Below are positions 1,677-62,430 of a stretch of DNA of 64,000 bases, in pieces. The stretch lies in NCBI GenBank assembly GCA_049297395.1, contig JBAQUG010000497.1, positions 5,516 to 69,515 on the forward strand. Reading direction: 5' to 3'. Made by a program: the position numbers and the translations under genes. Positions within the stretch are counted from its first letter, which is position 1, and every line of letters starts with the position of its first letter. The stretch is from Victivallales bacterium (GTDB lineage: Bacteria; Verrucomicrobiota; Lentisphaeria; Victivallales; GWF2-50-93). The notes under the pieces were generated by a model that saw only the letters and a list, made by a program, of their open reading frames with translations, ran no database searches and was not told the DNA's origin.

Positions 1677-4600
1677 ATGTTTAAAAAGATGAAATGGACT
1701 GCGTTGGCGGTGGGATTGACAGCGTCTCTTCTGGCTTCGGCAGCGTTCGCCGCGGAGCCTGTCCGCATAGAGAAAAAAGCGATCGAATTCAGTTCCACAA
1801 CGTTGGATGCAAAAGGGGTGGAAGATGTCAGGAAGATCAATATTTTAAGAGGAGGAGGCGAGGCGGAATACACGTTTGACATTCCCGAAACCGGCTGGTA
1901 TGAACTATATGTTACCGCGGCCCAATGGGCGACCGACCTGTTTCTGGACGGCAATTTTCTGATTTATACGCCTTTTGAGAGCGGTGTCTGGGAGAACAGC
2001 AAGGAGAAAGGCAATTTCAAGGTTCTGAATCTCCACCTGGCAAAAGGCGCACACGCCTTGAAGTTCTCAAGACCCTGGCATCCCGGACTTCCCTATATGA
2101 CTAAATTTTCCCTTGAATCCTCAAAGGATATAACCGGGATGGTTTCTCTTAACCTTAAAAAGGACTGCCTTGTTTTCAGGAAGGGAGAGGAATTTCCGGC
2201 AACACTCGTCTCCTCAAAATTAAACGAACAGTCAAATCTTGTCCTTACCGTCACGGATGTCGAAAAGAACAGGGAATTAGTAAAAAAAGAGTTGACGATA
2301 CCTGCTGGAAATGGAAATCATAAGGAGGATCTTGTTTTCCCGACAACGGACGAGGGCGTGTTCGATGTCAAAATAACGGATAAGGATGGAAGACCCTGCG
2401 ACAGGATTGTCCAGTACCTGGTTATTGACACTAAAAAAGATATTGCAGGGGTCAAGGAACTGAAAAAGGAGCTTGTCGGCACGATTGACGCCGGGAAGAA
2501 GGAGCCCGACTATTTTTCAGGGAAGACACGGGTGGTGGATGCGGGATTCGGTCCTTACAGGGAATCAGGAAATAAAGGCAGGGAATCGGGCGTTGAAGCT
2601 GCCGATTGGTTTGCCTATACCTTGAGCCTGCCCGCCATTCAGGAACCATACCTGCTTGAGATAGAGTATCCTGACAATGACAGGAGAACCTGTCCAATAG
2701 TTCTTTGCGAAAGATATGGCAATCCGGAGCCGGCGCTTGGATATTTTACAGGCGGTGTATATCCATTATCGGACAAAATGCTGATGCAGGAATTTTATTT
2801 CTTTCCGCGGGACAAGGATCCCCGGCTCTTATTTTACAACTGGGACAGCGGACAAAGGGCGGCGGTGAGCAAGATCAATATTTATCGTATAACCGAAGGC
2901 TTCCCTGTATTGGACACAAAGGTTTCCGAGCGCCTTTATGGAATCTATCAGGAGGAGCCGCTCCGCTATGTCAATTTCTATGGTGGAATGCCGGAAGGCG
3001 ACAAATGGGCGAATCTATGGAAGCCCGCGGAAAGAGTCGGGCAACTGTCAAATTATGCGGGTATAAACCTGTGGAATCCGACAATAGCTGTCTATGGGAA
3101 TATGCTCTGGCCGGGAAAGACAATACCAGGATACCAGATTGGCATTCTTCCGCCTGGTCCGGCCACGCTTAAAGAACCGATAAAAAAAGATGTGATGAGG
3201 CTGATGCTTTTAACCTGCGAAAAATATAAGATGAAGTTTGTAGGAGATCTGCATATACCGCCTACCAGTGTTTTAATGGAATATCTTGATAAAAGATTTG
3301 GCGGAAAAGGGACTCTGTCCGATGACGGGCCGCAAAAACCATGGCTGACTGTGTCAAACAAGGGGGAGGTTGGACTGAAAAGCACATACAAGCCCTACTA
3401 CAATCCTGTATATCCCGGAGTTCAGGAATGGGCATCGGATGTGTTCAGGGAGATTGTGGAAAGATATAAGGACTCTCCTGCGTTTGAAGGGATTTCAATG
3501 CGGTTTATGGGCTGGTGTTTTGGTGGATTCCAGACATTCGCCTCAATAAACTGGGGATATGAGGACTATACAATTGAATTGTTTGAAAAAGAGACCGGGA
3601 TAAAGATTCCTGTTGGCAAAGATGATCCGGAAAGATTCAAGAAGCGATATGAATACCTGATGGCAAAAAACTATGACGAATGGGTGAACTGGAGATGCAA
3701 AAAGATTAATGATTATCATAACAAGCTCGCGAAAATATTAACCGATGCAAGACCCGACATAAAATTCCATTTATTCCTGTGCGGCGCAAATTTTGGATGC
3801 GATGCGACGCAGGAAGACTATGAGATGAAAGGATGGACCGGCGTGTTAAAGGAGTCGGGAATTGACGCATCCTTATATTCCAAAAACCCTTCCATCAGAA
3901 TATATGAGGGCCGGGGTTATCCGGATGGCGGAAACCGTGGCGATGAAAAACCGCTGACTGTGGCGGAGTCAAGGGACCATACATATTCCTCGGAACAGAT
4001 AAAGGCGGTGGAAAAGGCTGTTGGGGATGGAACGGTTTCCGCCCTGTATTTTGGCACAAACCACGAGGGCGGGTATGTAAAATATGAAAAGCTCGGATAT
4101 TCGCAGAAAGAAGTCACATCAAATAGCAAGACAATATACCCTGACTCGACGGTGAATCCGGCCGGGATACACTATCTTGAAAGGTTTGCGAACGCGATGG
4201 CGGATGGAAATATCGTATGGCTCTCTGATGGGAGTCATGGATATGAATTGGGCCAGCCGATGTATTTGAGGAAGTTCCTGCCCGAATACAGGGCATTGCC
4301 TGCTATCGGAATGAAACCTTTGGAAAAAACAGATCCGGTCGCGCTGTGGCATGGAAAGGACAAGGGGAAGACGTATTTCTATATTGTCAACAGGACATAT
4401 TATCCCGTCGAGGCGGAAGTATCGTTTGCAGGAAACCCGCAGATTAAAAGGATGACGACGGATGAGAAGGTAAAAACTGAAAGGGATGCATTAAAAATAA
4501 AACTGGAGCCATACCAGATTATTTCCTATCAGGACGCTTCAGGCTCCACGCCAAAATCAATAAGCGTGAAGGTGCCTGAAAAAGAAAAGGGAATCCTGGA

Positions 4601-5810
4601 AAGACAGATTAAGGATGCGGAAAAGCTGATAAGGCAGGAGTCATCGGAAATAACGGTCCTGGCGCTGTCGCCTGTGGATCTGAAGAATGCTGAAAAGAAG
4701 ATAAATGAGGCGAAGGAACTGTTCAATGGAGGGAAATACTGGAAGACAAGACAGACTTTGCTGCATAAATATCTTATAAAGGCGTATGAGGCTCTGGGTT
4801 CGTATCCCGAAGGGCTCTTCTCCAGGAAGATGCCGGATATTCCCGGGAATGCGATGCTTCCTGAAAAGATCCTGGAAAATACGAAAGACAAGGCAAAGGC
4901 CAGAGCGGTGGATGCGGAGGAGATAACAAAAGCGCTGTCGGGAACAAAGGTGTTCATATGCGAGGATGAAACAAAATTCAGCATTGATGTCCCGTACAGG
5001 AATAAATACCGGATCTGGTATTCGGCCATTATAGACGAGTCGTTCCAGAGACCGGCTATCTTGATCGACGGGAAACCAATAGAAGAGATGGGGATGACGA
5101 AAGAACTGCTTGCGGAAAGAATCATATCCAGGCCGCTTGTCCTTGAGAAAGGAAGGAAGGAGGTGACGATAAAGAAGGGCGATAGGAAGAGCTCCCTTTT
5201 TTATTTGTTTCTTGAGCCTGTGTACAGGGATATGGAGCCTGATTCCTTCATGGCGATAGGACCGTTTCCGGCGGTGGCGGACACAAGGAACGCTGAAGAA
5301 TTCACCAAAAGGATGGATGAAATTTCAGGGCCTGAAAAGGAGCTGGATTTCACAAAGGGATACGAGGGGCTGAATAATAAGACAGTAAACTGGAGGAAGC
5401 CGGTTGGTAAAGTTGACATGAAGGGCAATATGTGCGACCCGTCTGCGTCAAATTATGTGGATTTATATACGACATTTGGCGTGATGAGCAGCATGATAGG
5501 CTATGCGGCAACCTCAATTGAAAGCCCCGATGAAAGAGACGCGGAGATTAGTTTTGGCGTTGACTATTGGGCGAAGATGTGGCTGAACGGGGAACTGATA
5601 TTGAAACCCGGGGACAGGCCGCTCGCGCCGCCTAAAAAAGGAGAAATGAAAATACAGGTGAAATTAAAGAAGGGTGAAAACATTCTTCTACTGAAGATCC
5701 ACGCAGGCAGCGCCGGCAACGGCTTCTGGCTGGCGATCAGCGATCCGGGCGACCTGAAAATATCGCCCATGCCCCGACAGGGAATGGCTGCCGTCGGAGC
5801 AGGAGCTTGA
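1677..5810 (+). CDS. Giant secreted glycoside-hydrolase-like protein, paralog A1 (jelly-roll / Ig-like / TIM-barrel-like core / beta-sandwich / helical linker / two jelly-rolls)
   Basis: The ORF is 1638-5810. AGGAG at 1666-1670 precedes ATG 1677, giving MFKKMKWTALAVGLTASLLASAAFAAEP (signal peptide). It is block-wise homologous to 16079-20272, 45911-50983 and 58171-62430, and more distantly to 24516-29294. Examples: FAYTLSLPAIQEPYLLEIEYPDNDRR, AAVSKINIYRI, NWGYEDYTIELFEKETGIKIPVGKDDPERFKKRYEYL, YFYIVNR. Confidence 0.85.
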   Translation: MFKKMKWTALAVGLTASLLASAAFAAEPVRIEKKAIEFSSTTLDAKGVEDVRKINILRGGGEAEYTFDIPETGWYELYVTAAQWATDLFLDGNFLIYTPFESGVWENSKEKGNFKVLNLHLAKGAHALKFSRPWHPGLPYMTKFSLESSKDITGMVSLNLKKDCLVFRKGEEFPATLVSSKLNEQSNLVLTVTDVEKNRELVKKELTIPAGNGNHKEDLVFPTTDEGVFDVKITDKDGRPCDRIVQYLVIDTKKDIAGVKELKKELVGTIDAGKKEPDYFSGKTRVVDAGFGPYRESGNKGRESGVEAADWFAYTLSLPAIQEPYLLEIEYPDNDRRTCPIVLCERYGNPEPALGYFTGGVYPLSDKMLMQEFYFFPRDKDPRLLFYNWDSGQRAAVSKINIYRITEGFPVLDTKVSERLYGIYQEEPLRYVNFYGGMPEGDKWANLWKPAERVGQLSNYAGINLWNPTIAVYGNMLWPGKTIPGYQIGILPPGPATLKEPIKKDVMRLMLLTCEKYKMKFVGDLHIPPTSVLMEYLDKRFGGKGTLSDDGPQKPWLTVSNKGEVGLKSTYKPYYNPVYPGVQEWASDVFREIVERYKDSPAFEGISMRFMGWCFGGFQTFASINWGYEDYTIELFEKETGIKIPVGKDDPERFKKRYEYLMAKNYDEWVNWRCKKINDYHNKLAKILTDARPDIKFHLFLCGANFGCDATQEDYEMKGWTGVLKESGIDASLYSKNPSIRIYEGRGYPDGGNRGDEKPLTVAESRDHTYSSEQIKAVEKAVGDGTVSALYFGTNHEGGYVKYEKLGYSQKEVTSNSKTIYPDSTVNPAGIHYLERFANAMADGNIVWLSDGSHGYELGQPMYLRKFLPEYRALPAIGMKPLEKTDPVALWHGKDKGKTYFYIVNRTYYPVEAEVSFAGNPQIKRMTTDEKVKTERDALKIKLEPYQIISYQDASGSTPKSISVKVPEKEKGILERQIKDAEKLIRQESSEITVLALSPVDLKNAEKKINEAKELFNGGKYWKTRQTLLHKYLIKAYEALGSYPEGLFSRKMPDIPGNAMLPEKILENTKDKAKARAVDAEEITKALSGTKVFICEDETKFSIDVPYRNKYRIWYSAIIDESFQRPAILIDGKPIEEMGMTKELLAERIISRPLVLEKGRKEVTIKKGDRKSSLFYLFLEPVYRDMEPDSFMAIGPFPAVADTRNAEEFTKRMDEISGPEKELDFTKGYEGLNNKTVNWRKPVGKVDMKGNMCDPSASNYVDLYTTFGVMSSMIGYAATSIESPDERDAEISFGVDYWAKMWLNGELILKPGDRPLAPPKKGEMKIQVKLKKGENILLLKIHAGSAGNGFWLAISDPGDLKISPMPRQGMAAVGAGA
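5250..5807 (+). other. Shared C-terminal jelly-roll module, copy in A1
   Basis: MAIGPFPAV...GPEKELDFTKGYEGLNNKTVNWRK...SPDERDAEISFGVDYWAKMWLNGE...LKKGENILLLKIHAGSAGNGFWLAISDPGD. The pattern (V.LNG...KG.N.L.V) resembles galactose-binding-domain-like / GH2 sugar-binding jelly-rolls. Confidence 0.7.
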
Positions 5811-5813
5811 ACC

Positions 5814-7484
5814 ATGAACCGAACGGGTTTAATAATTCTCGTTTTTGCCTGTCTCACAGGCCTTTGCGCCATTGCCGATGACATCCCCCGCCTGGAGTTC
5901 CAGAAGATCATCGGCGACATGCGGGGCAGGGGCATGCAGAACTTGTCGGTGACGGTCGCCGATGATGGTGCGGCCTATCTCCTCATGAGTGAAGGGCGCA
6001 TCGCCGTCTTCAATCCAGACGGGAAATATGCAAGAAGCCTGGATGTCCGGCTGACCTGGCCATTCAATCATCAATACATAAGCGCGTGGGGAAGGCGGGT
6101 ACTGCTTGGAGATTACAAGAAGGACTATCCATGGGTGTTCTCGGAACGTCGCGCCGGAGACGCACCTGGACGCTTCAGGAATCCATCCATGGCGGCGCCG
6201 GACAAGGATGGCGCACTCTACGTGGCCGACACGGGCAACAGCCGCGTCCAAGTCTTCGATGCCGGGAAGGAAAACTCTCCAGGGCACGTCATCAGCCTGA
6301 ACGCCAAGCCGTTGAGGCTCGATGTCAGGAACGGAACACTGGCGCTGCTTCTCGACGATCAGACTCTGCGCGTGCTTGATCTCAAAAACAGCCCGGACAT
6401 GGAACTGGGATGCGTGAAAACAGGTCCCGGTGCAGTGGCCGTCGCTCTCACCCCCGACCATGCGGTACTCGTTGCGTTCAACACCGGCCCCGACAGGAAT
6501 TTCCTGAAGAAATATCAAATCGACAAGGAGAGCGGCAAGCTTAAAGAATCCTCGACGATCGCCCCGTCCTATATCGATCAATGGCCGAACCTCTACCCGG
6601 TCGGGATGCCGATGACATCGGCTCCGGACGGATCCATATGGTTCGCTACATCGTATTTCGGACGCATCCTCGCCCTGGATCCCGTCACCGACAAGATCAC
6701 GGAGAAGATCAGGTCCCTGGGGAGCTATCCCCTCTGCGTGGGTTTCGGCTCCGATGGGAAACTCTTCGTGGGCGGCAGCGCCAAGTCCAAGTCAGGAGGC
6801 AGGAGAATCCAGACCATGCCGTTGGACGATCCCGCGTCCCCGGCCACCGAGTTCCCCAATGACAAAGACCTCTACAACGAGGATGGTGTCCCAGTCTGGT
6901 CGATCCTGCCGGACAAGGACGGCGGCGTCTTCGTCAGGATCATCGAGGAAGGATATCAAAAAGGCTGGCCCGCCATGACGATCAAGAAAGTCCTTGCCGA
7001 CGGAACCATGAAGCCTTTCGTGGATTTCGGACATCTGTACGCGAAACGGACGACCTTCCACCCGGCGGGAACCGTGTACTCGATGCAGTTCGACAGGAAT
7101 GGGGATATAATCCTGGCGGCATTGCCTCTGGTGGCCGTCTACAGGATCGCTCCTGACGGGAAAATAGTATGGGAAGCAGGGCTGGAGCCGCAGGGAGGGG
7201 CCGACAAAATTGAATTCGGAGCGCCACGCGCAACGGCCATCGACAGCCACGGCCGCATCTGGGTGGCCGACACTGCCAAGAACAAAGTCTTCTGCCTCTC
7301 CCCTCGGGGCAAACTGCTTTTCGAGTACGGCACGCGCGTCAACGTGGACGACATAGAGGGGAAAGGCTTCGATAATCCCAGCGCCGTCGCCATAGCCACT
7401 GTCAACGGGGCCGACTTCCTCTATGTCGGAGACTCGGGCAACCAGCGGATCGTGAAATACAGGATCATGGAAACGCAGAAGTAA
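5814..7484 (+). CDS. Secreted NHL-repeat beta-propeller protein
   Basis: Signal peptide MNRTGLIILVFACLTGLCAIADD. NHL-type repeats ALYVADTGNSRVQVFD, IWVADTAKNKVFCLSPRGK, LYVGDSGNQRIVKYRI. The ATG lies 3 nt after the A1 stop. It is homologous along its whole length to the C-terminal 603 aa of A3. Confidence 0.85.
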   Translation: MNRTGLIILVFACLTGLCAIADDIPRLEFQKIIGDMRGRGMQNLSVTVADDGAAYLLMSEGRIAVFNPDGKYARSLDVRLTWPFNHQYISAWGRRVLLGDYKKDYPWVFSERRAGDAPGRFRNPSMAAPDKDGALYVADTGNSRVQVFDAGKENSPGHVISLNAKPLRLDVRNGTLALLLDDQTLRVLDLKNSPDMELGCVKTGPGAVAVALTPDHAVLVAFNTGPDRNFLKKYQIDKESGKLKESSTIAPSYIDQWPNLYPVGMPMTSAPDGSIWFATSYFGRILALDPVTDKITEKIRSLGSYPLCVGFGSDGKLFVGGSAKSKSGGRRIQTMPLDDPASPATEFPNDKDLYNEDGVPVWSILPDKDGGVFVRIIEEGYQKGWPAMTIKKVLADGTMKPFVDFGHLYAKRTTFHPAGTVYSMQFDRNGDIILAALPLVAVYRIAPDGKIVWEAGLEPQGGADKIEFGAPRATAIDSHGRIWVADTAKNKVFCLSPRGKLLFEYGTRVNVDDIEGKGFDNPSAVAIATVNGADFLYVGDSGNQRIVKYRIMETQK

Positions 7485-16063: not shown

Positions 16064-16078
16064 AATTTTTCCCTCCGC

Positions 16079-20272: not shown

Positions 20273-20355
20273 CGTCATAATCCCTTCGTTTCTGTTAATA
20301 TATTTTTTTAAAAACATCTTTGCTTAATCGAACCATTCAATGATGCGTCTCTTCG

Positions 20356-29343: not shown

Positions 29344-29955
29344 TTACAAATCACCAGGAACAGGATAATCCTTGCTGGTAAGATAATAATTCATATCCCA
29401 GGAAGGAAAGTTACCGTCGAAATTCCCTTCAGGATTGTCGGGACATGTGAAAAACTTTGTATGGCCGCCATTGGGCTTCAGGTTTTTCGTGATGTCCAGG
29501 CCTACAAGAGGGGCAATCTTAAACATCCAATTGTATGCTTTTGCGGTCGAACCGGGAAGATTCGGGGTCGGGGTCGTATCGGCAATATGCTCGTTCCAGT
29601 CCCCCGCATAAAGAATATTGGCGGCGTCCATCTGCCGCAGGGTGTTTTTACAGCTAATTTTCTTCGCTGTATCCTTCGCGCTTTTCAGCGCGGGCAGCAG
29701 CATTGCAGCAAGAATTGCGATGATCGCAATCACCAATAAGAGCTCAATAAGCGTAAACACTTGTTGAACTTGCCTCCGCTTCCGCTTCGGGCAGAACTGC
29801 CCGCTGGCTGCGGCTGGTACGGTCACCAGGGGTTCTATTATCCGCCGGAGCAATAAGATGAATGCAAGATGCCGGATGCAGGTCGCTAGATTAGAATGTC
29901 TGGCGTCCTGGCTCCTGGAAAAAAGCTTCTTCCCCGCCCCAGTCTTGGTATCCAT
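29344..29955 (-). CDS. Prepilin-type N-terminal methylation domain protein (short pseudopilin-like), P2; true start uncertain
   Basis: [45 protein letters not shown]. The ATG at 29955 leaves about 70 aa before the FTLIELL motif, with no closer ATG. The next gene (A5) starts 49 nt after the stop. A consensus promoter sits at 30016-30044. Confidence 0.75.
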
Positions 29956-39265: not shown

Positions 39266-39378
39266 ACATACCTCCCTTATGTAATCAGAATATAAGCCAA
39301 GTTCCATATAAAACCCATACTCCATCTATATCTTTTCTTTGCGCTTCTGTTTTCATATTGAAAGATTTACAATTTGAT

Positions 39379-48900: not shown

Positions 48901-50983
48901 TTAGGAAGTCGAAGCGCTGGCGGAATCTTTTCGGATCTCCCGCCTTGCCGGGAACCTTCATGCCCGTATCCTTTTCAAACTGCGCAACTGTCCAGTCGTC
49001 ATATCCCCAGTTCAGGCTGGGCAGGGCGTTCCATCCCTGCCACTGCCAGGAGAGCATGAGGCGCGTAGAAATTCCCGCGAATGATTCGCAGTCACCGAGG
49101 CGGTCGGCTAGTTCGCCAAAGACGGAAATGTACATGTCCTGGATTTTAGGATGCAGGGCGTTGTAGCCGGCGGCCTTCCACCCGAACGAAGTCCCGCCAT
49201 CGCGGTTACGGATGATGTATTCCTCGGCAGTCGGCGCAATATGCAGTATCGATTCCTTCTTTCCATCATTTTCCTTTTCTTCATTCCATACGCCCATGAT
49301 GTGCTTGTCAAACCAGGCCTGTCCGCTGAGATGGAATTCCGCGACATATTTGCCGTGGTATTTTTCGGCCATCAGCGCGACCACCCTTGTCATGTCGTAC
49401 GATTCGCTGAAATATCCGTCGAGTATCTTGCTGGGATAGGCGTTGTACTGGTAGACGTTCGCGGTCGGGAACATCAGGTTGGCGCCGAGATACCTGTTCC
49501 ATTGGCCCCAGCGGTCGAGAGTGGTCAGATGTTCAATGAGCCCTGCTGGTCCTTCTCCCGCCTTTGCGCCGAAGAAGCGCATCCATCTGGGTCCCTCCTC
49601 GAAATAGAATCCCATGACGCGGCCGCTGGCAGGACCTGATGGACCGTCTGGCAGCGCGGAGTCGACCCTGTCGATCTGTATCTTTGCGGCGGCCGCCCTG
49701 TATCCAGGCACCAGGTTCAGGACCGCGACTACGATTCCTTCTTTCTTAAGAGGATAGAAAAACGCCTCGTGGGTCAGCAGGGAATTTGTCAGAGGATATT
49801 GGTCTCCGGTTTCCACGCCACCGGTCAAAGTGATGCCATTTCTGCCATCGGCGCCATCGTTGGTCCAGAATCCCATGCTGCGCCGCTCGTCGTCGGGATA
49901 AGTGACTCTCAAACGGTAAAGATGGTCCGTGTCCGGCAGGTCAAACTTATAGGAGAATCCATCGGTAGCCCAGTGATCCGACGTTCCTTTCCCAGACGAT
50001 TCACGGTACTTGCCAAATGGCGATTCGACAATTCTGCTTTCGCCGTCCTTTTCAAAAAATGTCTTGTCCTTTTCGACGGACTTTCCGTTGATGGTCTGGT
50101 TCACGCAGTCGATTTCAACAACCGTAGAAGTCTTTAGTTCGGCGGCCGGCGCCGGCGGATTCTTCGTGTCGATCACGATGAACATCCCGGCCTTGAGATC
50201 GGCGGGCCGTGAAAGTTTCTCCCCGGACTTGATGAGGAGCTGGAAGACTCCCTGCTGTGGGAACTCTATTTCAACTTCCTTTGAGATCGGTTCGGCGCTT
50301 ACGGGGAACTCCACTGTTCCGCATGGAGTGATCTCCTTGGTGTTCTCATTGCGGACGACGAGATCGTAGGATGCAGGGACCGTGGTTCCGCCGGAAAACG
50401 AAATCCTGATCTTTGTGCCGGCGCGGACGACGTTGTGGCCGACACCGGTTGCGCGGATGCAGCCTGCAGCTTCACCGTCCGTGCTTCTAAGCTCCCACTT
50501 GCTCGGCAGTGCTCCTGGAAAGCCCAGGCGGCGGATCCGGAGGGTATGCTTCCCTTCCTTTAGATAGAGGTTGGCCTCCTTCCACCAGGTGCCTTTTTCC
50601 CCTTTCCGGGATGCCAGGTCACTGTCTTCCTTATGCGAATATGTCAGGAGGAAAAGAATCCTGCCATCGAGGTAGATATCCCGGCTCCAGCCTGAGACGC
50701 CGTCTTTCTCCATCAGTTCGAACCAGCCGGATTTGGCGATAGTGAAATCATATTCGACCCAGCCGCCGGCGCCAAGGATGGTTCCCGCAACCTTCTGATC
50801 CTCCATCGACGAGATCCAGCCCTTCACTCCTGGCTTGAGCAATGCTGCAGGCCATTCCAGTTCCGAACGGTCATAGCTCCAGACATCGCGGGTGATGACA
50901 GGTTTTGTCTCAGCACCCTGAGGGTATACGGCAGATGCTGAAAGGAACACTGATGCAGCGATCATCAACGCTTTTTTTATCAT
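45911..50983 (-). CDS. Giant secreted GH-like protein, paralog A3, with a C-terminal NHL beta-propeller in place of the jelly-roll module
   Basis: MIKKALMIAASVFLSASAVYPQG is the signal peptide. Family blocks: FSYKFDLPDTDHLYRLRVTYPDDERR, NWGYDDWTVAQFEKDTGMKVPGKAGDPKRFRQRFDFL, FYFYAVNR. The C-terminus ..IEWLYVADVGNQRIVKFMIK is NHL-type. The ATG lies 1 nt after the GH29 stop. Confidence 0.85.
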   Translation of the reverse strand: MIKKALMIAASVFLSASAVYPQGAETKPVITRDVWSYDRSELEWPAALLKPGVKGWISSMEDQKVAGTILGAGGWVEYDFTIAKSGWFELMEKDGVSGWSRDIYLDGRILFLLTYSHKEDSDLASRKGEKGTWWKEANLYLKEGKHTLRIRRLGFPGALPSKWELRSTDGEAAGCIRATGVGHNVVRAGTKIRISFSGGTTVPASYDLVVRNENTKEITPCGTVEFPVSAEPISKEVEIEFPQQGVFQLLIKSGEKLSRPADLKAGMFIVIDTKNPPAPAAELKTSTVVEIDCVNQTINGKSVEKDKTFFEKDGESRIVESPFGKYRESSGKGTSDHWATDGFSYKFDLPDTDHLYRLRVTYPDDERRSMGFWTNDGADGRNGITLTGGVETGDQYPLTNSLLTHEAFFYPLKKEGIVVAVLNLVPGYRAAAAKIQIDRVDSALPDGPSGPASGRVMGFYFEEGPRWMRFFGAKAGEGPAGLIEHLTTLDRWGQWNRYLGANLMFPTANVYQYNAYPSKILDGYFSESYDMTRVVALMAEKYHGKYVAEFHLSGQAWFDKHIMGVWNEEKENDGKKESILHIAPTAEEYIIRNRDGGTSFGWKAAGYNALHPKIQDMYISVFGELADRLGDCESFAGISTRLMLSWQWQGWNALPSLNWGYDDWTVAQFEKDTGMKVPGKAGDPKRFRQRFDFLTGTAREKWIGWRCDKIFNYHCRLRDRIRQAKPDAKLFLNYFGPDPKEAYSQDILGQMREIGMDYRRYAAEDGFVIVQGGGYGRRYSTPVGDAKKSDPLYAEDVKTVARLGDRGFSIYTDYYEVNDNLDWEKLGGKKGYCAFDCSSPSGINERELYAIAMADSDTSFFVNGGNGWMFGTPPVLSPFLREFRALPALKFIPFEKARDPVAVWTREVKKEEADKLKISPGFYFYAVNRLPKNVKVELSTANASKVVPAAGGEPLTLKDGKALSFELEPFMLRSFRAEGGNVSIKNCSVEVPPEISAKLLPMITFAKDLLNDLRYRRTAPELSEPDAREAMRLLNESIRAYGEGRFWQAKGNLERSSLVRVYDINGRFPSGLLERKIPHGFTDVKDAPKVDFLGLQSIIGDVRGRLSTITDLAYDTESNLWAASHEQVMLFDRDGNYLKCLSLNLAHTPDEGDPRWAQLANPRYLDTWSLRLTPDKRLAAMSWHTQPALYETNTGRLLRLEWGYGFPVPGMRSSLLAIDKWGNPYLTCPEPADMKGVYKFREDGTMSFDYSVNGTPSNKLADTTASGGAVDAKDNIYLVSADGIKVFSSSGKEIESLTSDEFKKLGKLAVFPDGSKMLATNSDGTAILCFDRGSDAKFAKSWSFNLPAKATALAISPDLGIAIGFQQETNGVVAREYFILRNGLEARRDLIPGLSSMQTQSLKGTTQLKVNGGKIYYLAHNKLMRLTPGTPDTIEIAYDPGLPNADIQSFALAPDGSIYLASNFGFYSNSRGMNVYRCAKTATGWDKPKMLNGDKPLFDNWSYSPTDLEVESDGRLILRLDDPEVKAGGPTVTIFRYSPDDGKREKLIHLGGTLPWGDYGLHLGTDGKIFIAGGGTRSVTCLSQKAEIIWQDKFDPHQGHGSTPFRQPIGITTDSSGHVWLTEPARNNFVCLDSKGKFLKSYGKFGTLDDRDGMSFRQPTGIAAIKDAKGIEWLYVADVGNQRIVKFMIK
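45914..47722 (-). other. NHL/beta-propeller region of A3 (last 603 aa), homologous to the free-standing protein 5814-7484
   Basis: LQSIIGDVRGR aligns with FQKIIGDMRGR at the start. At the end, FRQPIGITTDSSGHVWLTEPARNNFVCLDSKGKFL..FRQPTGIAA..WLYVADVGNQRIVKF aligns with FGAPRATAIDSHGRIWVADTAKNKVFCLSPRGKLL..FDNPSAVAI..FLYVGDSGNQRIVKY. Confidence 0.75.
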
Positions 50984-50984: not shown

Positions 50985-53219
50985 TCACCGGGCTTTCATC
51001 TTTATGTCTTCCATGTCGTTTATCCGGCATGTGAACCAGTTGGCACAGCTGCCGCGATGACATTTGACGAGGAGGATATTGCTTCCTTTCCTGAGGTGTA
51101 TTTCCGCCGGGCCGGGCTTCCATCCGTTGAACTGCGAACCGTCCTCGGCCATGGCCGAAGCTGGACGGCATCCGGCGAGGGGACTGCCATTGATCCAGGC
51201 TTTCGCCCACCAGTCGCAGCCGATAAGAAGGAGAGCCTTGCATTCCTTTGAGCTTATAATTTCCGTCCTGGCATAGCATACCCCGCTGTGCCTGGAACCG
51301 CAGCGGTATGGAAAGTCGACACCAATGTCCGAATGTTCGCCTTCGCGAAGCTTGGAATGCTGCCACCTGACTTTATCTTTTCCAATTCCCTGATAGGATT
51401 TTTTCAAGTCGAATTCCTTCTCCGGGGGGAAAACCGTGGACATTGCCTTGCGAACTTCGCAGACAGGAGCCTGCGGCCCGAATGCCGTGGGGAACGGTCC
51501 GATGGTCAACCAGTTCTCTGAAGGAATGGGTTTCCAATGGGGCGTGACTTTCAGAGCGTAGATTCCGAGTTTCTCAATTGATTTTATCAACAGCCTGTGA
51601 TGTCCATGTGAAAGGTGCTTGTTCTCCAGGATTACAGTATCAGGGCATCCTCCGTAACGCAGGAGGCCCACAGGTTTCATCAGATCACCGTCAAGACGTA
51701 TCTCAATGGAAGATGCTTTTTTCGTGATCAGTCCGACGGCTATGTCGTAGACCCCGTCCGCCGGCACTGCAATATTCAAAATTGGAAACAGGCTTTCCGG
51801 CAATGAAAAAACAGTCCGTCCAGTCCAGCCCGGACACCATTTGGACGAGTCGGAGCCGACAAGGGTTCTGGAATTTTGGATGAGAATTTTAAGCGGCCTC
51901 CCCTCTATGACAGGAGGTTCGGGCGGTGAAAAACGGTCGCTGTCCTGGCCGAGTACCGGAGCCTCCCCCTTTTTCATGCGGATACCGTTCCTGGCATGGC
52001 CTAGCGTATCGGCGGGGATGCCGAAAGTCTTTGATTTAATGGAAAGAACCTCAGGTAGATTGTCATGGGAGATCTTAGGCAGGCCGCCAACATCTATTGT
52101 CATGTCCGATTCCGTTTTTATTTTCAGTTCTGAATAGCCTTCCAGGATGCAGGCTTCGAAATTCCTGGAATTGAGACCTTCCAGCCGGATGTTTTTTCCT
52201 GTGTTTCTGGAAATGAAGAAGAAGGCCTTCTGTCCTTTTGATGTTACCGGACCACAGGCGTGGTTGGCTTCGCTGTATGCGGTGCGCTGCGTGCCGTAAA
52301 TGGCGTCGCCGTTTGTCTTGAGCCATTTCCCTATTGTCTCGAGTCGTTTTGTAAATTCGGGCTGGATCGTGCCATCGGCCTTTGGGCCGACATTGAGGAG
52401 GAGGTTTCCTTCAAAGCGTGCCGCGTAGATGAGGCAGTCAATTACTTCCTGCGGGGATTTGAAATTCCTGTCCGAAGGGTTGTATCCCCAGCTTTGATTG
52501 AGGGTCATGCATGCCTCCCAGCGCTGTCCGGCCGCCGGTGCGGTGACGTGCTGCTCTGGCGTGATGAAATCCTCATGAAGACCCGAGCGATCATTGATCA
52601 ATATGTCGGGCTGTAGACGGCGGACCATTGCATTCAGCTCCCTGGAGCGCCAGTATTTCGCCTGCATTTTGTCGTCCTGCATCCCCGGTACGACTGCGCC
52701 GTCATACCAGAGCATGTCTATCCTGCCGTAATTGCCCATGATTTCACGGACCTGTGCATGGGATTCCTTCACCATTGCCGCCCAGCCCTTGGGATCGGCT
52801 GTGGGTCCAGTAAGGATTGCAGGCCATTGCCAGCTCATGACAGAATGATACAGTCCGATCCGGAGCCCGGCCCTGCGGCATGCGTCGACGAATTCCCTCA
52901 CGAAGTCGCGTCCCGCCGCAGTTTTTACGGAATTGTAGTCGCTCACCTTGCTGTCATACATTGCGAATCCGTCATGATGCCTGGTAGTGAATACCATGTA
53001 CTTCGCACCGGCCCTTACTGCGAGATCCGCCCATTCTTCGGCATTGAACTTATCGGGGGGATTGAACTGTTCTGTGAGCCTGTTGTATTCCGGCTTCGGG
53101 ATCTTCTCCTTGAACATCACCCATTCCCCGCGCCCCCATATCGAGTAGATCCCCCAGTGTACGAATATTCCGAATTTTGCTTCATTGAACCAAGACTGTC
53201 CCGTCTTTCGATTTTCCAT
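50985..53219 (-). CDS. GH29 alpha-L-fucosidase with beta-sandwich linker and the shared C-terminal jelly-roll module; no N-terminal signal peptide
   Basis: WFNEAKFGIFVHWGIYSIWGRGEWVM, MVFTTRHHDGFAMYDSKVSDYNS and IDMLWYDGA are canonical GH29 blocks. The N-terminus MENRKTGQSW lacks a hydrophobic segment. Confidence 0.85.
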   Translation of the reverse strand: MENRKTGQSWFNEAKFGIFVHWGIYSIWGRGEWVMFKEKIPKPEYNRLTEQFNPPDKFNAEEWADLAVRAGAKYMVFTTRHHDGFAMYDSKVSDYNSVKTAAGRDFVREFVDACRRAGLRIGLYHSVMSWQWPAILTGPTADPKGWAAMVKESHAQVREIMGNYGRIDMLWYDGAVVPGMQDDKMQAKYWRSRELNAMVRRLQPDILINDRSGLHEDFITPEQHVTAPAAGQRWEACMTLNQSWGYNPSDRNFKSPQEVIDCLIYAARFEGNLLLNVGPKADGTIQPEFTKRLETIGKWLKTNGDAIYGTQRTAYSEANHACGPVTSKGQKAFFFISRNTGKNIRLEGLNSRNFEACILEGYSELKIKTESDMTIDVGGLPKISHDNLPEVLSIKSKTFGIPADTLGHARNGIRMKKGEAPVLGQDSDRFSPPEPPVIEGRPLKILIQNSRTLVGSDSSKWCPGWTGRTVFSLPESLFPILNIAVPADGVYDIAVGLITKKASSIEIRLDGDLMKPVGLLRYGGCPDTVILENKHLSHGHHRLLIKSIEKLGIYALKVTPHWKPIPSENWLTIGPFPTAFGPQAPVCEVRKAMSTVFPPEKEFDLKKSYQGIGKDKVRWQHSKLREGEHSDIGVDFPYRCGSRHSGVCYARTEIISSKECKALLLIGCDWWAKAWINGSPLAGCRPASAMAEDGSQFNGWKPGPAEIHLRKGSNILLVKCHRGSCANWFTCRINDMEDIKMKAR
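50988..51512 (-). other. Shared C-terminal jelly-roll module, copy in GH29
   Basis: WLTIGPFPTAF...FPPEKEFDLKKSYQGIGKDKVRW...CKALLLIGCDWWAKAWINGS...FNGW...HLRKGSNILLVKCHRGSCANWFTCRINDMED. Confidence 0.7.
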
Positions 53220-53976: not shown

Positions 53977-54087
53977 GGCAGCACCTTGCACGTTTATTAT
54001 ACTCCTTTGCCCTGTCGGAAAACTGCCATCGTGCCCGGATGGATTCAAAACCTGAACCTGCCGCTGCCCGGCTGCGATGACAATGGC

Positions 54088-56741: not shown

Positions 56742-56814
56742 AATGCTGCTCCTGTTTTGATGTTTATATATTCCGGATATACATTATGGATATTATAAAT
56801 GATGCCATTGGCAA

Positions 56815-57963: not shown

Positions 57964-57983
57964 AGTTATTCCTAGACATTATT

Positions 57984-58008: not shown

Positions 58009-58023
58009 GATCTGATTGCTTAG

Positions 58024-58093: not shown

Positions 58094-58170
58094 GGGAATA
58101 CTGCCCACACAACCGCTTTTCCCGTAGATCTTATTGCTTATGTAATAATCTACCTGAAGCTTACATGCTA

Positions 58171-61100
58171 TCAAGGTTTCGGCGAAAGGGTGATTCCCTT
58201 CTCGTCGGTGATATATGCCGAGAACGCGCTGCCGCCGCTGCCGCCCTGCTGCTTCACAAGAAGCGTGTTCACACCCTTCTTGAGCTTCAGGACACCCCAG
58301 TGGACGGCGGACCAGGTTGTGAAATCCGAACCGCAGTCGGCCTTGACTTCCGGCTTTACGTTTGTGGTGATCGGCTCGCCGTTGAGGAAGGCCTTCGCCC
58401 ACCAGTCAACGCCCATATAGAAAAGCGCGGTCCTGTCTTCATTGCTGTTTATAAAGGTCACCGCATAGTTGAAGTCCGCACTTGAAGACTTGGTCCTGAC
58501 AGGCATGTCCACCCCCAGGTCCCCGATTTTTCCGACGATGCTGCTGGACGACGTGCTCCAGCGGCGTTCGCTTCCGTCAGCATCCTTGTATGTTGCCGAA
58601 AGGTCGATCTTCCCTTCAGGCGGATATTTCTGGTCCATCCCCTTTTTCACGAATCTGCCCTCAGGTCCGCGCCCGGCCATGTGAAGCCCCCAGTAGCTGG
58701 CGAAAGGTCCGACAGTGGACCATGCCATGTCCGGCATGGGGTTCAGGACAGGAAGAATCTTAAGCCCGTAGACGCCGAACGATCCGTCGCGGCGGATGGC
58801 CAGGCGGTTCTTCCCCTTCTTCAACGACACGCGCGGGAACGCCGCCGTTTCCGGCATTCCCGGCTGGATCGTGATGCACGGGGCGGCAAGGCTGACACCG
58901 TTTATGGAGGCGGTTGTGACGCCCATGCCTTCGGCAACATGCCCCAGGTGGAATATGTAGTCGCCATCGGCAGGGATGTCCAGATCGAATTCAATCGTTC
59001 CATTTTTAGATTTCAAAACTTCATGGCCGTCCCATTCCGCGTTGTAGGTGGTAGATGGAACTTTTTCAGGAACTGTTCCAGCCGCCATCTTCATGAGCCC
59101 GGCGGCGGCGGTTACGCCCTCATCGGTTTCCCAGTGATCGCCTTTCCTAGGGGAAAGGAGACCTGGGAATTTCGTTATCACCTGTCCTTCCGGCATTGCA
59201 GAGATCTTTTCGTAGACCAGCATCATCGGCGCCATCGACAAGGCGGTCCTGCTGCGCCAGACATGGCCGAGGCGGTATGCCTCCCAGGCCTGTTCGAGAT
59301 TCTTCAGATAGGCCGCGCGGAGCTTTTCGCTGACGTCATTCCTGCGAATTCCGCAGGTTATGGATTCCGCGATCTGCTGTGAGAAAGCGAGGCGTTCATG
59401 CAGCGCCTTCATGTTTTCTTCCGGCACAGTCGCCTTCGCCTCTGCAATTTTGGCGTCTTTTCCGGTCTTGAATGAACGCAGGGCGTACGGCTGGAGAGTC
59501 AGGTTGAGGCATCCTTTTTCCAGCGATGTCTTTTTCCCGTTCACGGTCGATGTCACGCTGTCTGCGCCGGTCAATGTTATTTTCACCTCAACCGGGAACC
59601 GCTCGCGGTTTACAGCGTAGAAGAAATAGTTATTAGTTATCAGTGATTGGTTATTTGTATTTTGCTGGCCACCGTCCACCGGCAACTGGTCACTCTTCCC
59701 GCTGTGCCATACCGCGACAGGGTCGCGTGCTGATTCGACGCTTTCAAATGGCACCGCCGGTATCGATTCGAATTCCGAGAACCATTCGTTCCATAGGCCG
59801 GGATCTCCGAACATGTCGGAATTCCCGCCGTCGCGCAGTATCGCCGAATCCTGTTCCGCCAGGACTACCGCGAATTTCTCAAGGCTGTTCCTGCCTGCCG
59901 CCAGGACCGCGGAACAGTAGTAGGGCATATCGCCTTTCTTGACGCCTTTGACTCCGAGCTTGTCGCAGGGCCAGTATGTCGCCAGTTCGTGATAGGTCAT
60001 GTAGGCCGCGAAGCTGCGGACCTTTCCGAAACCCGACGCCACGTTGTCAGGATCGAAGAATCCGTCGTAGATAGCCTGTTCCGAGGAAGTGGTGTTCCTT
60101 GAACCGTAGCGCGACACGGCCATAACCGCGATGCCGTCCGTCTTCTTCAGGCGATCCAGGTCGATACCCATCTCGTAGAAGCGGCTTTTCTTGCCGTCAG
60201 GGATCTTGAAACACGGATCGCAGTCGCCGTCGCCGGCAATTATGAAGTTGACATCCTTCCTTCCATCCTGGATCCGGTCGCGGATCCTGAGATGGTAGTC
60301 CATCGTCTTGTCGCTGCGCCATTTCATCCATTTGCCCTTCACGTCCTTGGACACGAGGAAGTCGAAGCGCTTTACAAAACGGTCGGGATCGTCGTTTGAA
60401 ACAGGAACCTTCACGCCGGTTTCCTTTTCAAACTGCTTCATTGTCCAGTCTCCATAGCCCCAGTGCAGTCCGGGTATGTTGAAGTCGCCCCTGAACAGCC
60501 ATGCATCTGCGCGTACGCAGATTCCTTCGAATGCCGGTGAGTCACGGAGCTTGTCGGCCAGTTCGCCCATGGCGTTCACCCATCGTGTCTGGATGGCGGG
60601 ATGGAAGGTGTTGAGATCGCATGCTGCGAATCCAGTACCCTTCATGGCGCCGGTGCAGCTTACCGACCGTACATCCTCGGGATTCTCCACTTCCTTCGGC
60701 AGGACTACCATGTTGAGGTACCACTGCGTCGGGAAGACTTCCGGCATGTAGCGCATGCCATATTTTTCGCATATCAGCGCGAGAAGCCTGGTCTCGTCGA
60801 AATCGCTGGTGAGGAAGCCGTCGAGATATTGGGACCTGTAGAACGCCTCCTGGTAGCCGACTCCGAGACCTGTTATTCCGTTGAAGCCGAAATACCGGAC
60901 AAGCCGCGCCCATCGGTCAAGTCCTATGAACGCCCTGACGGACTGCGGAGCCCCCCTGTGGGTGAGATGGATGTTGGTCAGGAACCTCCAGCTGAGGGCC
61001 TCCTCATACCAGTGGATGGCGGAACGTCCATTCTTCCATTCGACTTTTGTCGCGGGAAGCTCGCCGTCGAAGCGGTAGATGTTTATCTTCGACGCCGCGG

Positions 61101-62430
61101 CCCTGTGCCCGACCTGCTGGCTGATCACGCAGATCTGGATATTGTCCGAGGCGGCCCAGAAGACACTCTTCATATTCCTTGATTCATTTGATATGGGGAA
61201 TATTCCTCCTGTCTCGTAGGATTTGCTGTATGAACTGCTGCCTTCGACAAAGCCTCCGGTCTTCCTGTCGATCTGTATCAGGGGAACTGTAACCGAACGG
61301 CGCATGTCGTCCGGGAATTCCAGTTCTATGAGATAGGGTACGCCAGCTTCGGGAAGATCGAAACGATATGCAAATCCTGAATATGATCTGGGAATTTCCG
61401 TCGGGGTCAGAGGTACTTCGACATCGGCTCCGTAGCAGTTGTTGCTTTCACGGTATTTGCCGGCTTTCGACTCCGAAACCCGCGTGGCGCCGTTGCATTC
61501 CCAGTAGTTTTCACCGGTTACTACAGGCTTGCCGTCAATCGTATTCGCAACGCAGTCGATCACCCTCACAAGCGACGGTTTCCCACCCGGCCTCAAAGCT
61601 GCGTTTACATCGACAACAACAAATTCGCCGATCCTGAACTCGCTCGGACGCAGAAATTTTCCATTAGTCTCGGCCAGCAGTTCGAAGACCCCTTCCGCAG
61701 GACATTGAATTTCAACGGTCTTCTCAACGGGTTCAGCGCTTGGCTCGAAATTGACTGTCACGCCAGTAGCTTCAGGGGCGGCTTTCGGATCGAGCAGATT
61801 TGCCCTTAGCAGTTTGTAACTGGCTGCCGAATTTGTTCCTCCTCCCAGGACTTTGATCTTCAGTTTTTCTCCGGCCCTGACGACATCGATAATAGTTTTG
61901 GAGGCTGATACCGAAGCTTCCGGACGCTTTTCAGAAGATTTGAATTCCCACGCATCAAAGATTCCGTGCGGAAACGAGATCCTGCCTACGCGGCGGATGT
62001 TCATTTCGTGCTTTCCCTTTTTAAGGAACAGGTTTGCGGTTTTCGCAGTTTCCTTTGATATGAAATCCCCTTTGTCTCCCGAGCGTAGTTCGCCGGAACG
62101 GTATATGAAATTTCCATCTATGACAAGGTCATGCCCCATCTGGCCGAGAGGATTTTTCAGGAATAGCTCATACCATCCGTCGGCCGGAATATCGATATTG
62201 TAGGTGGTGTTCCAACCCTGCGGAGCCCCTTCCTTCGGCCAGGGCTGATCCCGCTTCGGTTCGCTGGTGAACGGACGTCCATCGCCCCACTCAACCTTTG
62301 TGAAGTCCCAGAAGCTCCCTGACATGCCGGATGCTGGAGATTCCTTCGGTTCGGCGGAGGCTTTTGATATGAGGACGGGAATTATAAACGCACCTACGAA
62401 AGCCGCAAGCATGAACTTATCCATTGGCAT
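58171..62430 (-). CDS. Giant secreted GH-like protein, paralog A4
   Basis: MPMDKFMLAAFVGAFIIPVLISKASAEP is the signal peptide. AAGGAG Shine-Dalgarno. Family blocks: FAYRFDLPEAGVPYLIELEFPDDMRR, AAASKINIYRF, HWGYGDWTMKQFEKETGVKVPVSNDDPDRFVKRFDFL, YFFYAVNR. Confidence 0.85.
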   Translation of the reverse strand: MPMDKFMLAAFVGAFIIPVLISKASAEPKESPASGMSGSFWDFTKVEWGDGRPFTSEPKRDQPWPKEGAPQGWNTTYNIDIPADGWYELFLKNPLGQMGHDLVIDGNFIYRSGELRSGDKGDFISKETAKTANLFLKKGKHEMNIRRVGRISFPHGIFDAWEFKSSEKRPEASVSASKTIIDVVRAGEKLKIKVLGGGTNSAASYKLLRANLLDPKAAPEATGVTVNFEPSAEPVEKTVEIQCPAEGVFELLAETNGKFLRPSEFRIGEFVVVDVNAALRPGGKPSLVRVIDCVANTIDGKPVVTGENYWECNGATRVSESKAGKYRESNNCYGADVEVPLTPTEIPRSYSGFAYRFDLPEAGVPYLIELEFPDDMRRSVTVPLIQIDRKTGGFVEGSSSYSKSYETGGIFPISNESRNMKSVFWAASDNIQICVISQQVGHRAAASKINIYRFDGELPATKVEWKNGRSAIHWYEEALSWRFLTNIHLTHRGAPQSVRAFIGLDRWARLVRYFGFNGITGLGVGYQEAFYRSQYLDGFLTSDFDETRLLALICEKYGMRYMPEVFPTQWYLNMVVLPKEVENPEDVRSVSCTGAMKGTGFAACDLNTFHPAIQTRWVNAMGELADKLRDSPAFEGICVRADAWLFRGDFNIPGLHWGYGDWTMKQFEKETGVKVPVSNDDPDRFVKRFDFLVSKDVKGKWMKWRSDKTMDYHLRIRDRIQDGRKDVNFIIAGDGDCDPCFKIPDGKKSRFYEMGIDLDRLKKTDGIAVMAVSRYGSRNTTSSEQAIYDGFFDPDNVASGFGKVRSFAAYMTYHELATYWPCDKLGVKGVKKGDMPYYCSAVLAAGRNSLEKFAVVLAEQDSAILRDGGNSDMFGDPGLWNEWFSEFESIPAVPFESVESARDPVAVWHSGKSDQLPVDGGQQNTNNQSLITNNYFFYAVNRERFPVEVKITLTGADSVTSTVNGKKTSLEKGCLNLTLQPYALRSFKTGKDAKIAEAKATVPEENMKALHERLAFSQQIAESITCGIRRNDVSEKLRAAYLKNLEQAWEAYRLGHVWRSRTALSMAPMMLVYEKISAMPEGQVITKFPGLLSPRKGDHWETDEGVTAAAGLMKMAAGTVPEKVPSTTYNAEWDGHEVLKSKNGTIEFDLDIPADGDYIFHLGHVAEGMGVTTASINGVSLAAPCITIQPGMPETAAFPRVSLKKGKNRLAIRRDGSFGVYGLKILPVLNPMPDMAWSTVGPFASYWGLHMAGRGPEGRFVKKGMDQKYPPEGKIDLSATYKDADGSERRWSTSSSSIVGKIGDLGVDMPVRTKSSSADFNYAVTFINSNEDRTALFYMGVDWWAKAFLNGEPITTNVKPEVKADCGSDFTTWSAVHWGVLKLKKGVNTLLVKQQGGSGGSAFSAYITDEKGITLSPKP
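58174..58722 (-). other. Shared C-terminal jelly-roll module, copy in A4
   Basis: WSTVGPFASYW...YPPEGKIDLSATYKDADGSERRW...INSNEDRTALFYMGVDWWAKAFLNGE...LKKGVNTLLVKQQGGSGGSAFSAYITD. Confidence 0.7.

Follow-up and report, generated by a model that had tools for sequence, protein, structure and literature searches.

Five giant barrel proteins of a Victivallales bacterium belong to a divergent clade remotely related to GHL10 and are candidate glycan-cleaving enzymes

Introduction

Only a few members of the GHL10 superfamily (DUF187, COG1649) have been characterised, and those only in part; they act on peptidoglycan. In one of them, Cwp19, Asp196 has been singled out as likely catalytic or intermediate-stabilising, and GHL10 proteins carry a conserved Gly at the position where PgaB, GH42 enzymes and β-mannanase have their β7 catalytic Glu (PMC5765458). 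For a second member, Escherichia coli DigH (YddW), the describing paper gives no catalytic residues. Here we analyse a 64,000-nucleotide stretch of a Victivallales bacterium genome (GenBank assembly GCA_049297395.1, contig JBAQUG010000497.1, positions 5,516 to 69,515; hereafter the window), which encodes five very large proteins, A1 to A5. An earlier inspection of the letters (the sequence-only reading) had grouped these as one family of giant secreted proteins resembling glycoside hydrolases (GHs), with a catalytic core that it could not assign to a named family. We describe how A1–A5 are related to one another, their predicted fold, their distant homology to GHL10, the conservation of their residues and the genes around them, and from this we infer hydrolytic activity: they would be secreted, multi-modular, active glycan-cleaving enzymes of an uncharacterised GHL10-related clade, a reading to which we assign a probability of roughly 0.6. 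A literature search covering GHL10/DUF187, COG1649/UPF0748, DUF5703, new fucanase families and Victivallales fucosidases yielded no paper that describes the clade.

Results

Five paralogous giant proteins occupy about a third of the window

All five open reading frames (ORFs) attributed to the family were present where they had been placed (Table 1). Together, the longest ORFs of A1–A5 (1390, 1412, 1592, 1690 and 1419 amino acids (aa)) amount to 7503 aa; their 22.5 kb cover 35% of the 64-kb window, in agreement with the earlier estimate of about 7,500 codons and roughly one third. For A1 and A2, the internal starts proposed by the sequence-only reading are more plausible than the longest-ORF starts, because in each case the internal Met directly opens a basic, hydrophobic, Ala-rich signal peptide and matches the N-terminus of A4. 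Putative Sec-type signal peptides, read from the sequence by eye, are found at all five N-termini.

An all-versus-all BLASTP comparison showed that the five are true paralogs that align block by block, as had been claimed (E 1e-29 to 0). A2 shares 37% identity with A5 over 1389 aa and 37% with A4 over 1113 aa (both E = 0); with A1 it aligns along the full length at 27% (E 6e-127). The most distant copy is A3, with 21–26% identity to the others (E 1e-29 to 1e-34); an additional N-terminal stretch, an insertion of 10 aa after β1 and a deletion around β6 set it apart, with the key residues kept. The family motifs quoted previously were all located, although the term "near-invariant" is too strong for two: in place of the YPDD.RR block, A1 has YPDNDRR and A3 has IPNDKRR, and the strand motif AA[AV]SKI.[IV]Y[RK] is not matched by A3 and A4. 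A protein identical to A4 exists in a public collection (P0046). When the exact sequences of A2 and P0046 were looked up, no contig was found; for the GH29 protein encoded beside A4, two short Logan contigs were the only ones.

The core is modelled as a glycosidase-type barrel

A2 was used for structure prediction. An AlphaFold2 model of aa 30–1100, built from a 50-sequence alignment and with secondary structure read from the DSSP string, had a mean predicted local distance difference test score (pLDDT) of 91.9 and a predicted template-modelling score (pTM) of 0.92. Since Foldseek was uninformative with this 1071-residue multi-domain model, the barrel was also modelled alone (aa 462–905; pLDDT 90.8, pTM 0.92). 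Both models contain the same eight β/α units, that is, a (β/α)8 barrel. In the larger model the barrel is preceded by a β-rich N-terminus and followed by a β-sandwich and a helical linker, which is the order that had been proposed; the jelly-roll topology specifically was not confirmed. GH13 and GH2 proteins, which appeared as generic matches of the multi-domain model (template-modelling (TM) score <0.26), were discarded as fold kin.

When the barrel model was searched with Foldseek, all top matches were (β/α)8 glycosidases at 10–13% identity. The lowest E value was that of the GH14 structure 1b90 (E 2.6e-10, 13% identity; TMq 0.50–0.55 for GH14), followed in second rank by Cwp19 (5oq3; E 1.3e-9, TMt 0.57). 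The PgaB structures 4p7n and 6au1 matched with TMt of about 0.6 at 10–11% identity and GH42 β-galactosidases with TMq of about 0.5, with GH35 and GH20 ranking after these. The layout had previously been said to recall GH42 or GHL10 (DUF187) barrels; both are indeed among the nearest folds, together with GH14 and GH153. A predicted fold without a barrel or pocket and without conserved acidic residues had been named as the outcome that would point to a non-enzymatic protein; the models show a confident barrel, and Asp and Glu residues are conserved in the family.

Profile comparison links the core remotely to GHL10

The one Pfam model of relevance to the core was GHL10 (PF02638). A1 exceeded its gathering threshold with 42.6 bits against a cutoff of 27.9 (E 5.6e-11), and GHL10 matches at E ≤ 1e-3 were obtained for 10 of 26 diverse family members. 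No Pfam match of A1–A5 to Glyco_hydro_42, to any other clan-A hidden Markov model (HMM) or to the GH14 HMM was seen, and none of the five matched NCBIfam. Sequence searches of the PDB with A1 and A2 gave nothing meaningful, and no PgaB chain appeared in the PDB sequence and profile searches with the family. The PDB profile searches gave only two matches, both of which were discarded, namely the "putative alpha-L-fucosidase" 4h41 (E 0.057) and a set of maltose-binding-protein fusion tags with a chance match to FEKETGIKV. Across Pfam, NCBIfam and the PDB there was thus no confident HMM match to a characterised GH or polysaccharide lyase family with its catalytic residues.

A more sensitive comparison was made with hhalign, using a 179-row alignment of the family core and an alignment of DigH orthologs of low diversity (75–100% identity among the matches listed). 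The two were related with 95.6% probability (E 1.3e-8); the aligned part, core positions 41–279, corresponds to β2–β5. DigH and Cwp19 are in turn close homologs (E 5.5e-100) that share the same Asp motif. The earlier view that the core cannot be assigned to a named family therefore stands with respect to characterised families, whereas its isolation does not, a remote link to the GHL10 superfamily having been found. Judged from these profile alignments, the core appears to be a divergent, uncharacterised clade remotely placed at the edge of GHL10 rather than "unassigned". Taken with the models, the predicted core is a genuine glycosidase-type barrel whose only sequence-detectable kin is GHL10, and which is placed outside the GHL10 core.

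Strand-end residues are conserved across all five copies

Conservation was assessed over 193 aligned rows drawn from 50%-identity clusters, in A2 numbering, and mapped onto the DSSP string of the model. The most conserved positions are R472 at the start of β1 (99%), E479 and E480 just after β1 (99% and 94%), Y526 after β2 (99%), N611 before α3 (87%), R644 at the end of β4 (99%), W648 in the barrel (97%), G662 and Y663 (99% and 100%) and D665 (93%) past an excursion of ~20 residues after β4, W705, W708 and R709 on α4 (100%), G785 after β6, Y824 and E826 just after β7 (90% and 93%), and G880 in β8 (98%). Among these, R472, E479, Y526, R644, Y663, D665, R709 and E826 lie mostly at or just past the C-terminal ends of strands. 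As the sequence-only reading had noticed, there is no NEP acid/base motif, β4 ending in Arg644.

The hhalign comparison pairs F-D-D-Y of DigH with Y663-[G/D/E]664-D665-[W/Y]666, which identifies D665 as the counterpart of Cwp19 Asp196. On this pairing, the DD[Y] motif of GHL10 (D195-D196-Y197 in Cwp19) would be represented by its second Asp and its aromatic residue, the first position being Gly, Asp or Glu; it sits ~20 residues past β4, whose own end carries Arg644. E826 is present in all five subfamilies, while its relation to Gly328 of Cwp19 falls where the profile alignment is unreliable. A first alignment in which A1 and A3 seemed to have no β7 Glu was overturned by a subfamily-aware alignment, in which "NHE" and "[IV]E" are conserved. 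Aligning the five copies with their homologs, which had been suggested as a way of finding invariant acidic residues, thus yielded E479, E480, D665 and E826 in all five copies. By analogy with the GHL10 Asp and with the β7 Glu of fold neighbours, D665 and E826 are our tentative candidates for the catalytic carboxylate pair, an assignment to which we give slightly less than even odds.

Because the full residue set is kept, all five copies are probably active, and from this conservation A1–A5 are probably active enzymes. The absence of a canonical NEP or DD signature at β4, where an Arg stands instead, could alternatively mark these as non-catalytic barrels, pseudo-enzymes that bind or capture polysaccharide for true enzymes; the proteins have many β modules that resemble carbohydrate-binding modules (CBMs), and a non-catalytic triosephosphate isomerase (TIM) barrel is among the fold matches (7upv, a BZR1-type β-amylase). 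However, polar and charged strand-end residues that are 93–100% conserved in at least 190 representatives sharing no more than ~50% identity, and in all five subfamilies, look like an active site, and the Asp homologous to Cwp19 Asp196 is kept. We consider a purely binding role unlikely.

The conserved β-sandwich that precedes the barrel in A2 (aa 290–460) is conserved as strongly as the barrel itself. D301 (96%), Y335 and R336 (98%), Y364 (98%), R387 (100%) and P382-D383-D384 (99%, 95% and 90%) stand out in it, and E337 is also listed as conserved. This domain could be an active-site lid, a metal site or a second site.

The clade is large, widespread and divided into old subfamilies

A homolog profile was built from the five cores, and relatives were counted as representatives of 50%-identity clusters. 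At least 2123 representatives were retrieved at E ≤ 1e-3, of which 880 reached E ≤ 1e-30. Among the matches listed, most of the complete ones have ~1000–1700 aa, and their barrel begins around residue 400–470. Most family members have no Pfam domain at all in these searches. A word-indexed search gave 45 relatives, of which all the named ones are called hypothetical.

A scan of one genome per species identified 45 loci, all in metagenome-assembled genomes (MAGs), many of them from groundwater or soil projects according to their record titles. They are distributed over Victivallales and Lentisphaeria, Armatimonadota including Capsulimonadaceae, Planctomycetota, Kiritimatiellia, Chthoniobacteraceae, WS1, Chitinivibrionia, Burkholderiales and Clostridia. 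The closest is a Victivallales MAG with a protein 88% identical to A2, and about 14 of the 45 loci have two or more copies side by side. Many copies per genome were seen in several MAGs. In the Armatimonadota soil MAG SMAG_U4744, members were found on at least nine contigs (L001, L006, L008, L009, L013, L015, L017, L026 and L029). The best copy of this MAG has 61% identity to A2, a value suggestive of exchange between Lentisphaerota and Armatimonadota.

For every one of the five copies, between 18 and 54 of 183 sampled external proteins were closer than the best paralog within the window; A2, for example, is 62% identical to an Armatimonadota protein, A3 83% to P0060 and A5 71% to P0021. Because external proteins are closer than in-window paralogs, the five represent old, separately conserved subfamilies. 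To call the region an unusual investment in one enzyme type, as was done before, is therefore fair, with the qualification that the copies are ancient subfamilies and not recent duplicates. Since each belongs to a different ancient subfamily, each copy probably has its own linkage or side-chain specificity.

Accessory modules connect the giant proteins with their neighbours

A C-terminal module of ~300 aa is common to A1, A2, A3, A5, the GH29 fucosidase and the heparinase-II/III-like protein of the window (Table 1). By BLASTP, A2 1107–1407 aligns with GH29 443–741 at 37% identity (E 3e-57), and A2 1102–1408 with residues 966–1269 of the heparinase-like protein at 33%. The last ~150 aa of the module are also homologous to the N-terminus of the 672-aa protein encoded directly downstream of A2. 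The N-terminal, pre-barrel and C-terminal modules, as well as this 672-aa protein, had no Pfam match even at E ≤ 1. The sharing of the C-terminal module by the giant proteins, the GH29 enzyme and the lyase-like protein argues for a common substrate, and the module is likely to serve as a common binding or targeting unit.

In A4, an NHL/SGL β-propeller replaces the shared module, the N-terminus and barrel being as in the other copies. A stand-alone propeller gene directly follows A1, and its product has 29% identity to A4 residues 1494–1689 (BLASTP); the pair of an A1-like gene and a propeller gene recurs in a related locus (L012). That the propeller is fused in one case and separate in the other implies that barrel protein and propeller work together.

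Several polysaccharide lyase families have a β-propeller fold. The propeller fused to A4 and following A1, together with a heparinase-II/III-like protein and a sulfatase as neighbours, would accord with non-hydrolytic cleavage, either lyase-type β-elimination or transglycosylation, of a uronic-acid or sulfated polymer, with a Tyr (Tyr526, Tyr663 and Tyr824 being conserved) as base and an Arg (Arg644, Arg709) as charge neutraliser. On the other side, the fold neighbours are all hydrolases, carboxylates are conserved at the β1, β4-loop and β7 positions, and we know of no polysaccharide lyase family with a (β/α)8 barrel. Transglycosylation has a precedent in Cwp19, which has been described as a lytic transglycosylase (PMC6016235). 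Overall, we regard non-hydrolytic cleavage as unlikely and favour hydrolysis by the barrel.

Table 1. Genes, domains and modules of the window (coordinates are window positions unless given as aa; starts and strands as analysed).
Feature	Position	Strand	Description
A1	1677..5810	+	1377 aa from Met at 1677; longest ORF starts at 1638; also has signal peptide, N-terminal β modules and shared C-terminal module
A1 barrel and β-sandwich	~2898-4589	+
A2	16079..20272	-	1397 aa from Met at 20272; longest ORF starts at 20317; copy used for modelling
β-rich modules of A2	A2 aa ~45-290		DSSP of AlphaFold2 model
Conserved pre-barrel β-sandwich of A2	18938..19450 (A2 aa ~290-460)	-	DSSP and conservation; includes YPDDxRR block
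(β/α)8 barrel of A2	17618..18910 (A2 aa ~470-900)	-	DSSP, conservation over 193 rows, Foldseek, hhalign against DigH
Post-barrel β-sandwich of A2	A2 aa 917-993		DSSP of model
Helical bundle/linker of A2	A2 aa 997-1070		DSSP of model
Shared C-terminal module in A2	16079..17014	-	~300 aa; BLASTP
A3	24516..29294	-	1592 aa; most divergent copy
A4	45911..50983	-	1690 aa
NHL/SGL β-propeller of A4	about 45911-47960	-	C-terminus of A4
A5	58171..62430	-	1419 aa; nearest to A2
GH29 α-L-fucosidase	50985..53219	-	Pfam Alpha_L_fucos, 301.7 bits; directly upstream of A4, same orientation
Shared C-terminal module in GH29 protein	50985-51900	-
672-aa protein	14045..16063	-	directly downstream of A2; recurrent neighbour of the family
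Heparinase-II/III-like protein	20356..24198	-	1280 aa; between A3 and A2; Pfam Hepar_II_III_C, 34.3 bits; NCBIfam HepB-like, weak
Shared C-terminal module in heparinase-like protein	20356-21300	-
Prepilin-type N-methylation-motif protein	29344..29955	-	directly upstream of A3; Pfam N_methyl
N-methylation-motif gene	791-1552	+	before A1
N-methylation-motif gene	53251-54048	-	before GH29 and A4
N-methylation-motif gene	38339-39325	-	before sulfatase
NHL/SGL β-propeller gene	5814..7484	+	stand-alone, directly after A1; Pfam NHL 55 bits, SGL 46 bits
DUF5703_N protein	9375-11732	+	matches structure 9hyq_A, "DUF5703 domain-containing protein", E 3e-87
PIN-domain (VapC-like) ORF	30086-30463	-	between A3 operon and GH31-like gene; Pfam PIN, 67.7 bits

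The gene neighbourhood points to polysaccharide catabolism

The giant genes lie in three co-directional strings. One consists of a pseudopilin-like gene, A3, the heparinase-like gene, A2 and the gene of the 672-aa protein; a second of a GH116 gene, a pseudopilin-like gene, GH29, A4 and a LacI-family regulator; and the third of a pseudopilin-like gene, A1 and the NHL propeller gene. Other neighbours recognised with Pfam in the window are GH39-like, DUF5703, AXE1-type esterase, GH31-like, sulfatase, DUF3604 and CBM9 proteins, and GntR and AraC regulators. No paper mentioning DUF5703 was found in the literature. G+C content is 48% over the first 4 kb (1–4000, most of A1) and 55–60% over 16000–24000 (A2 and the heparinase-like gene); given this contrast, the operons may differ in history.

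The 672-aa protein matched nothing in Pfam, NCBIfam or the PDB, and its homologs (500–670 aa) adjoin family members in eight related loci. It may be a further enzyme, so far unrecognised, that acts in this pathway. Homologs of the small N-methylation-motif proteins, one of whose four copies in the window is also DUF1559-like, adjoin family genes in 8 of the 45 related loci, and these pseudopilin-like proteins may act as a substrate-capture partner. Seventeen of the loci measure 15 kb or more and span Armatimonadota, Lentisphaerota, WS1 and Clostridia; among these, a gene with a GH29 catalytic domain occurs in six, a gene for a homolog of the 672-aa protein in six and a pseudopilin-like gene in five. 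A string of A2/A5-type, A4-type, 672-aa-type and GH29 genes was seen in Capsulimonadaceae, Victivallaceae and Lentisphaeria. By a rough estimate, only a few in a hundred random 20-kb stretches would contain a GH29 gene, and the association with GH29 in 6 of 17 loci is on this basis real.

These neighbourhoods bear on the possibility that A1–A5 are peptidoglycan glycan-strand hydrolases or lytic transglycosylases after the manner of Cwp19 and DigH, employed in bacteriolysis, feeding on necromass or self-remodelling. The only sequence-detectable relatives with known activity are indeed Cwp19, a hydrolase or lytic transglycosylase, and DigH, which cleaves denuded glycans, and the clade retains the second DD[Y] Asp. 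But this homology is remote and partial, the first motif Asp is often lost, and an Arg, a Glu-Glu pair and a further Glu have been added. Furthermore, LysM, SPOR, CWB2 and other wall-binding domains were not found in Pfam scans of the family proteins, the genes around the copies encode GH29, sulfatase, esterase and lyase-like proteins as well as regulators of the sugar type, and GH29 co-occurs with the family across phyla. A role in the cell wall is in our view improbable. What argues instead for catabolism of a fucose-bearing polysaccharide is the recurrence of GH29 and esterase genes, together with regulators of the sugar type and the shared binding-type module, and the sulfatase and esterase of the window suggest that the polymer is also decorated. 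The substrate is probably a fucose-containing heteropolysaccharide, anionic or decorated. Specificity for a fucose polymer is a more tentative proposal than the catalytic pair.

Discussion

Together, these results favour A1–A5 being secreted glycan-cleaving enzymes of a GHL10-related clade. Several observations weigh against this. The Pfam GHL10 match of A1 spans only profile positions 99–227 of 311 (129 positions), A3, A4 and A5 score below the threshold (21.6, 18.9 and 13.8 bits) and A2 has no match, and the alignment of the core with DigH is confident for β2–β5 alone, the rest of the global alignment being unreliable. The fold matches are modest (TM about 0.5–0.6), as would be the case for any TIM-barrel glycosidase. 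As for the proposed catalytic residues, D665 lies beyond an insertion of ~20 residues instead of on β4, E826 lies three residues past the DSSP end of β7, and D665, E826, E479 and R644 were placed by sequence and DSSP string, their closeness in space being presumed. Finally, fucose is linked to the family through neighbouring genes in only 7 of 45 loci, and the characterised GHL10 members act on peptidoglycan, unlike what the context of the window suggests.

Within the favoured reading, the following mechanism can be proposed. The enzymes would be exported by their Sec signal peptides and targeted to the polymer by non-catalytic β-sandwich modules, including the C-terminal one of ~300 aa. Glycosidic bonds would be cleaved at the C-terminal face of the barrel, with D665 catalytic by homology to Cwp19 Asp196 and E826 by its position relative to the β7 Glu of fold neighbours, in a site lined by E479/E480, Y526, R644, Y663 and Y824, in which a sulfate or carboxylate group might be recognised by Arg644. 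Linkages or decorations would differ from one of the five subfamilies to the next, and side groups would be removed by the GH29, acetyl-esterase, sulfatase and remaining GH-like enzymes, with LacI, GntR and AraC regulators presiding over the joint depolymerisation of a complex heteropolysaccharide.

A bolder version of this proposal, which we think somewhat unlikely as a whole, is that the clade would constitute a new CAZy-level GH family, sister to GHL10, with a re-arranged catalytic centre comprising an insertion-displaced Asp, a new Glu after β7, a Glu-Glu pair after β1 and a β4 Arg recognising an anionic group. Such a family would provide uncultured lineages of groundwater and soil (Victivallales, Armatimonadota and Planctomycetota) with the missing endo cleavage of the backbone of heteropolysaccharides that contain fucose or are sulfated or acidic, and the fused or adjacent NHL propeller and the pseudopilin-like partners would form a dedicated capture-and-cleave system.

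Knowing the activity of the clade would give a name to thousands of "hypothetical" proteins. It would probably also add to the GHs a new family or sub-clade whose active site is laid out in an unusual way. It would further identify the complex glycan that feeds subsurface and soil Lentisphaerota and Armatimonadota, for which a fucose-rich microbial or plant polymer is the candidate. A third of a 64-kb catabolic region is given to this family, which offers a concrete, cloneable target more than a conceptual surprise.

Compared with known systems, the GHL10/DUF187/COG1649 proteins (Cwp19, 5OQ2 and 5OQ3; DigH) are the most similar, with a (β/α)8 barrel, homology over β2–β5, a common N-P-x-x-P-x-x-Q segment before α3, a W-R motif on α4 and, by the profile alignment, the second Asp of DD[Y], which is D665 here. 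A1–A5 differ from these single-barrel proteins of ~400 aa in their length of 1400–1700 aa with at least six extra domains, in the insertion of ~20 residues between β4 and the Asp motif, whose first Asp is often Gly, in the invariant Arg that ends β4 and in the Glu-Glu after β1. The clade also has a conserved Glu shortly after β7, and Cwp19 and GHL10 have a conserved Gly at the end of that strand (PMC5765458); its context is one of polysaccharide catabolism, as against the cell wall for GHL10.

The C-terminal domain of GH153 PgaB (4P7N, 6AU1) is likewise a (β/α)8 barrel, belonging to an exopolysaccharide hydrolase, and its β4 Asp and β7 Glu (PMC5765458) resemble the proposed D665 and E826; there is, however, no sequence-level match, the architecture is another, and PgaB is encoded in a pga operon as opposed to a catabolic cluster. 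GH42 β-galactosidases (clan GH-A; 4UNI, 4OIF) have in common with A1–A5 a barrel followed by a β-sandwich and a Glu near the end of β7, but A1–A5 have Arg644 in place of the Asn-Glu acid/base at β4, so that only the β7-side Glu is present. The likeness to GH14 β-amylases (1B90, 3VOC) is that of a generic barrel only, with no sequence similarity and no starch-related neighbours. The clade is thus not categorically new, being TIM-barrel glycosidase-like with a traceable link to GHL10, as the sequence-only reading had suspected. It is nevertheless a distinct, large and wholly uncharacterised variant, with its own architecture, an altered active-site layout and a genomic association different from that of known GHL10 proteins.

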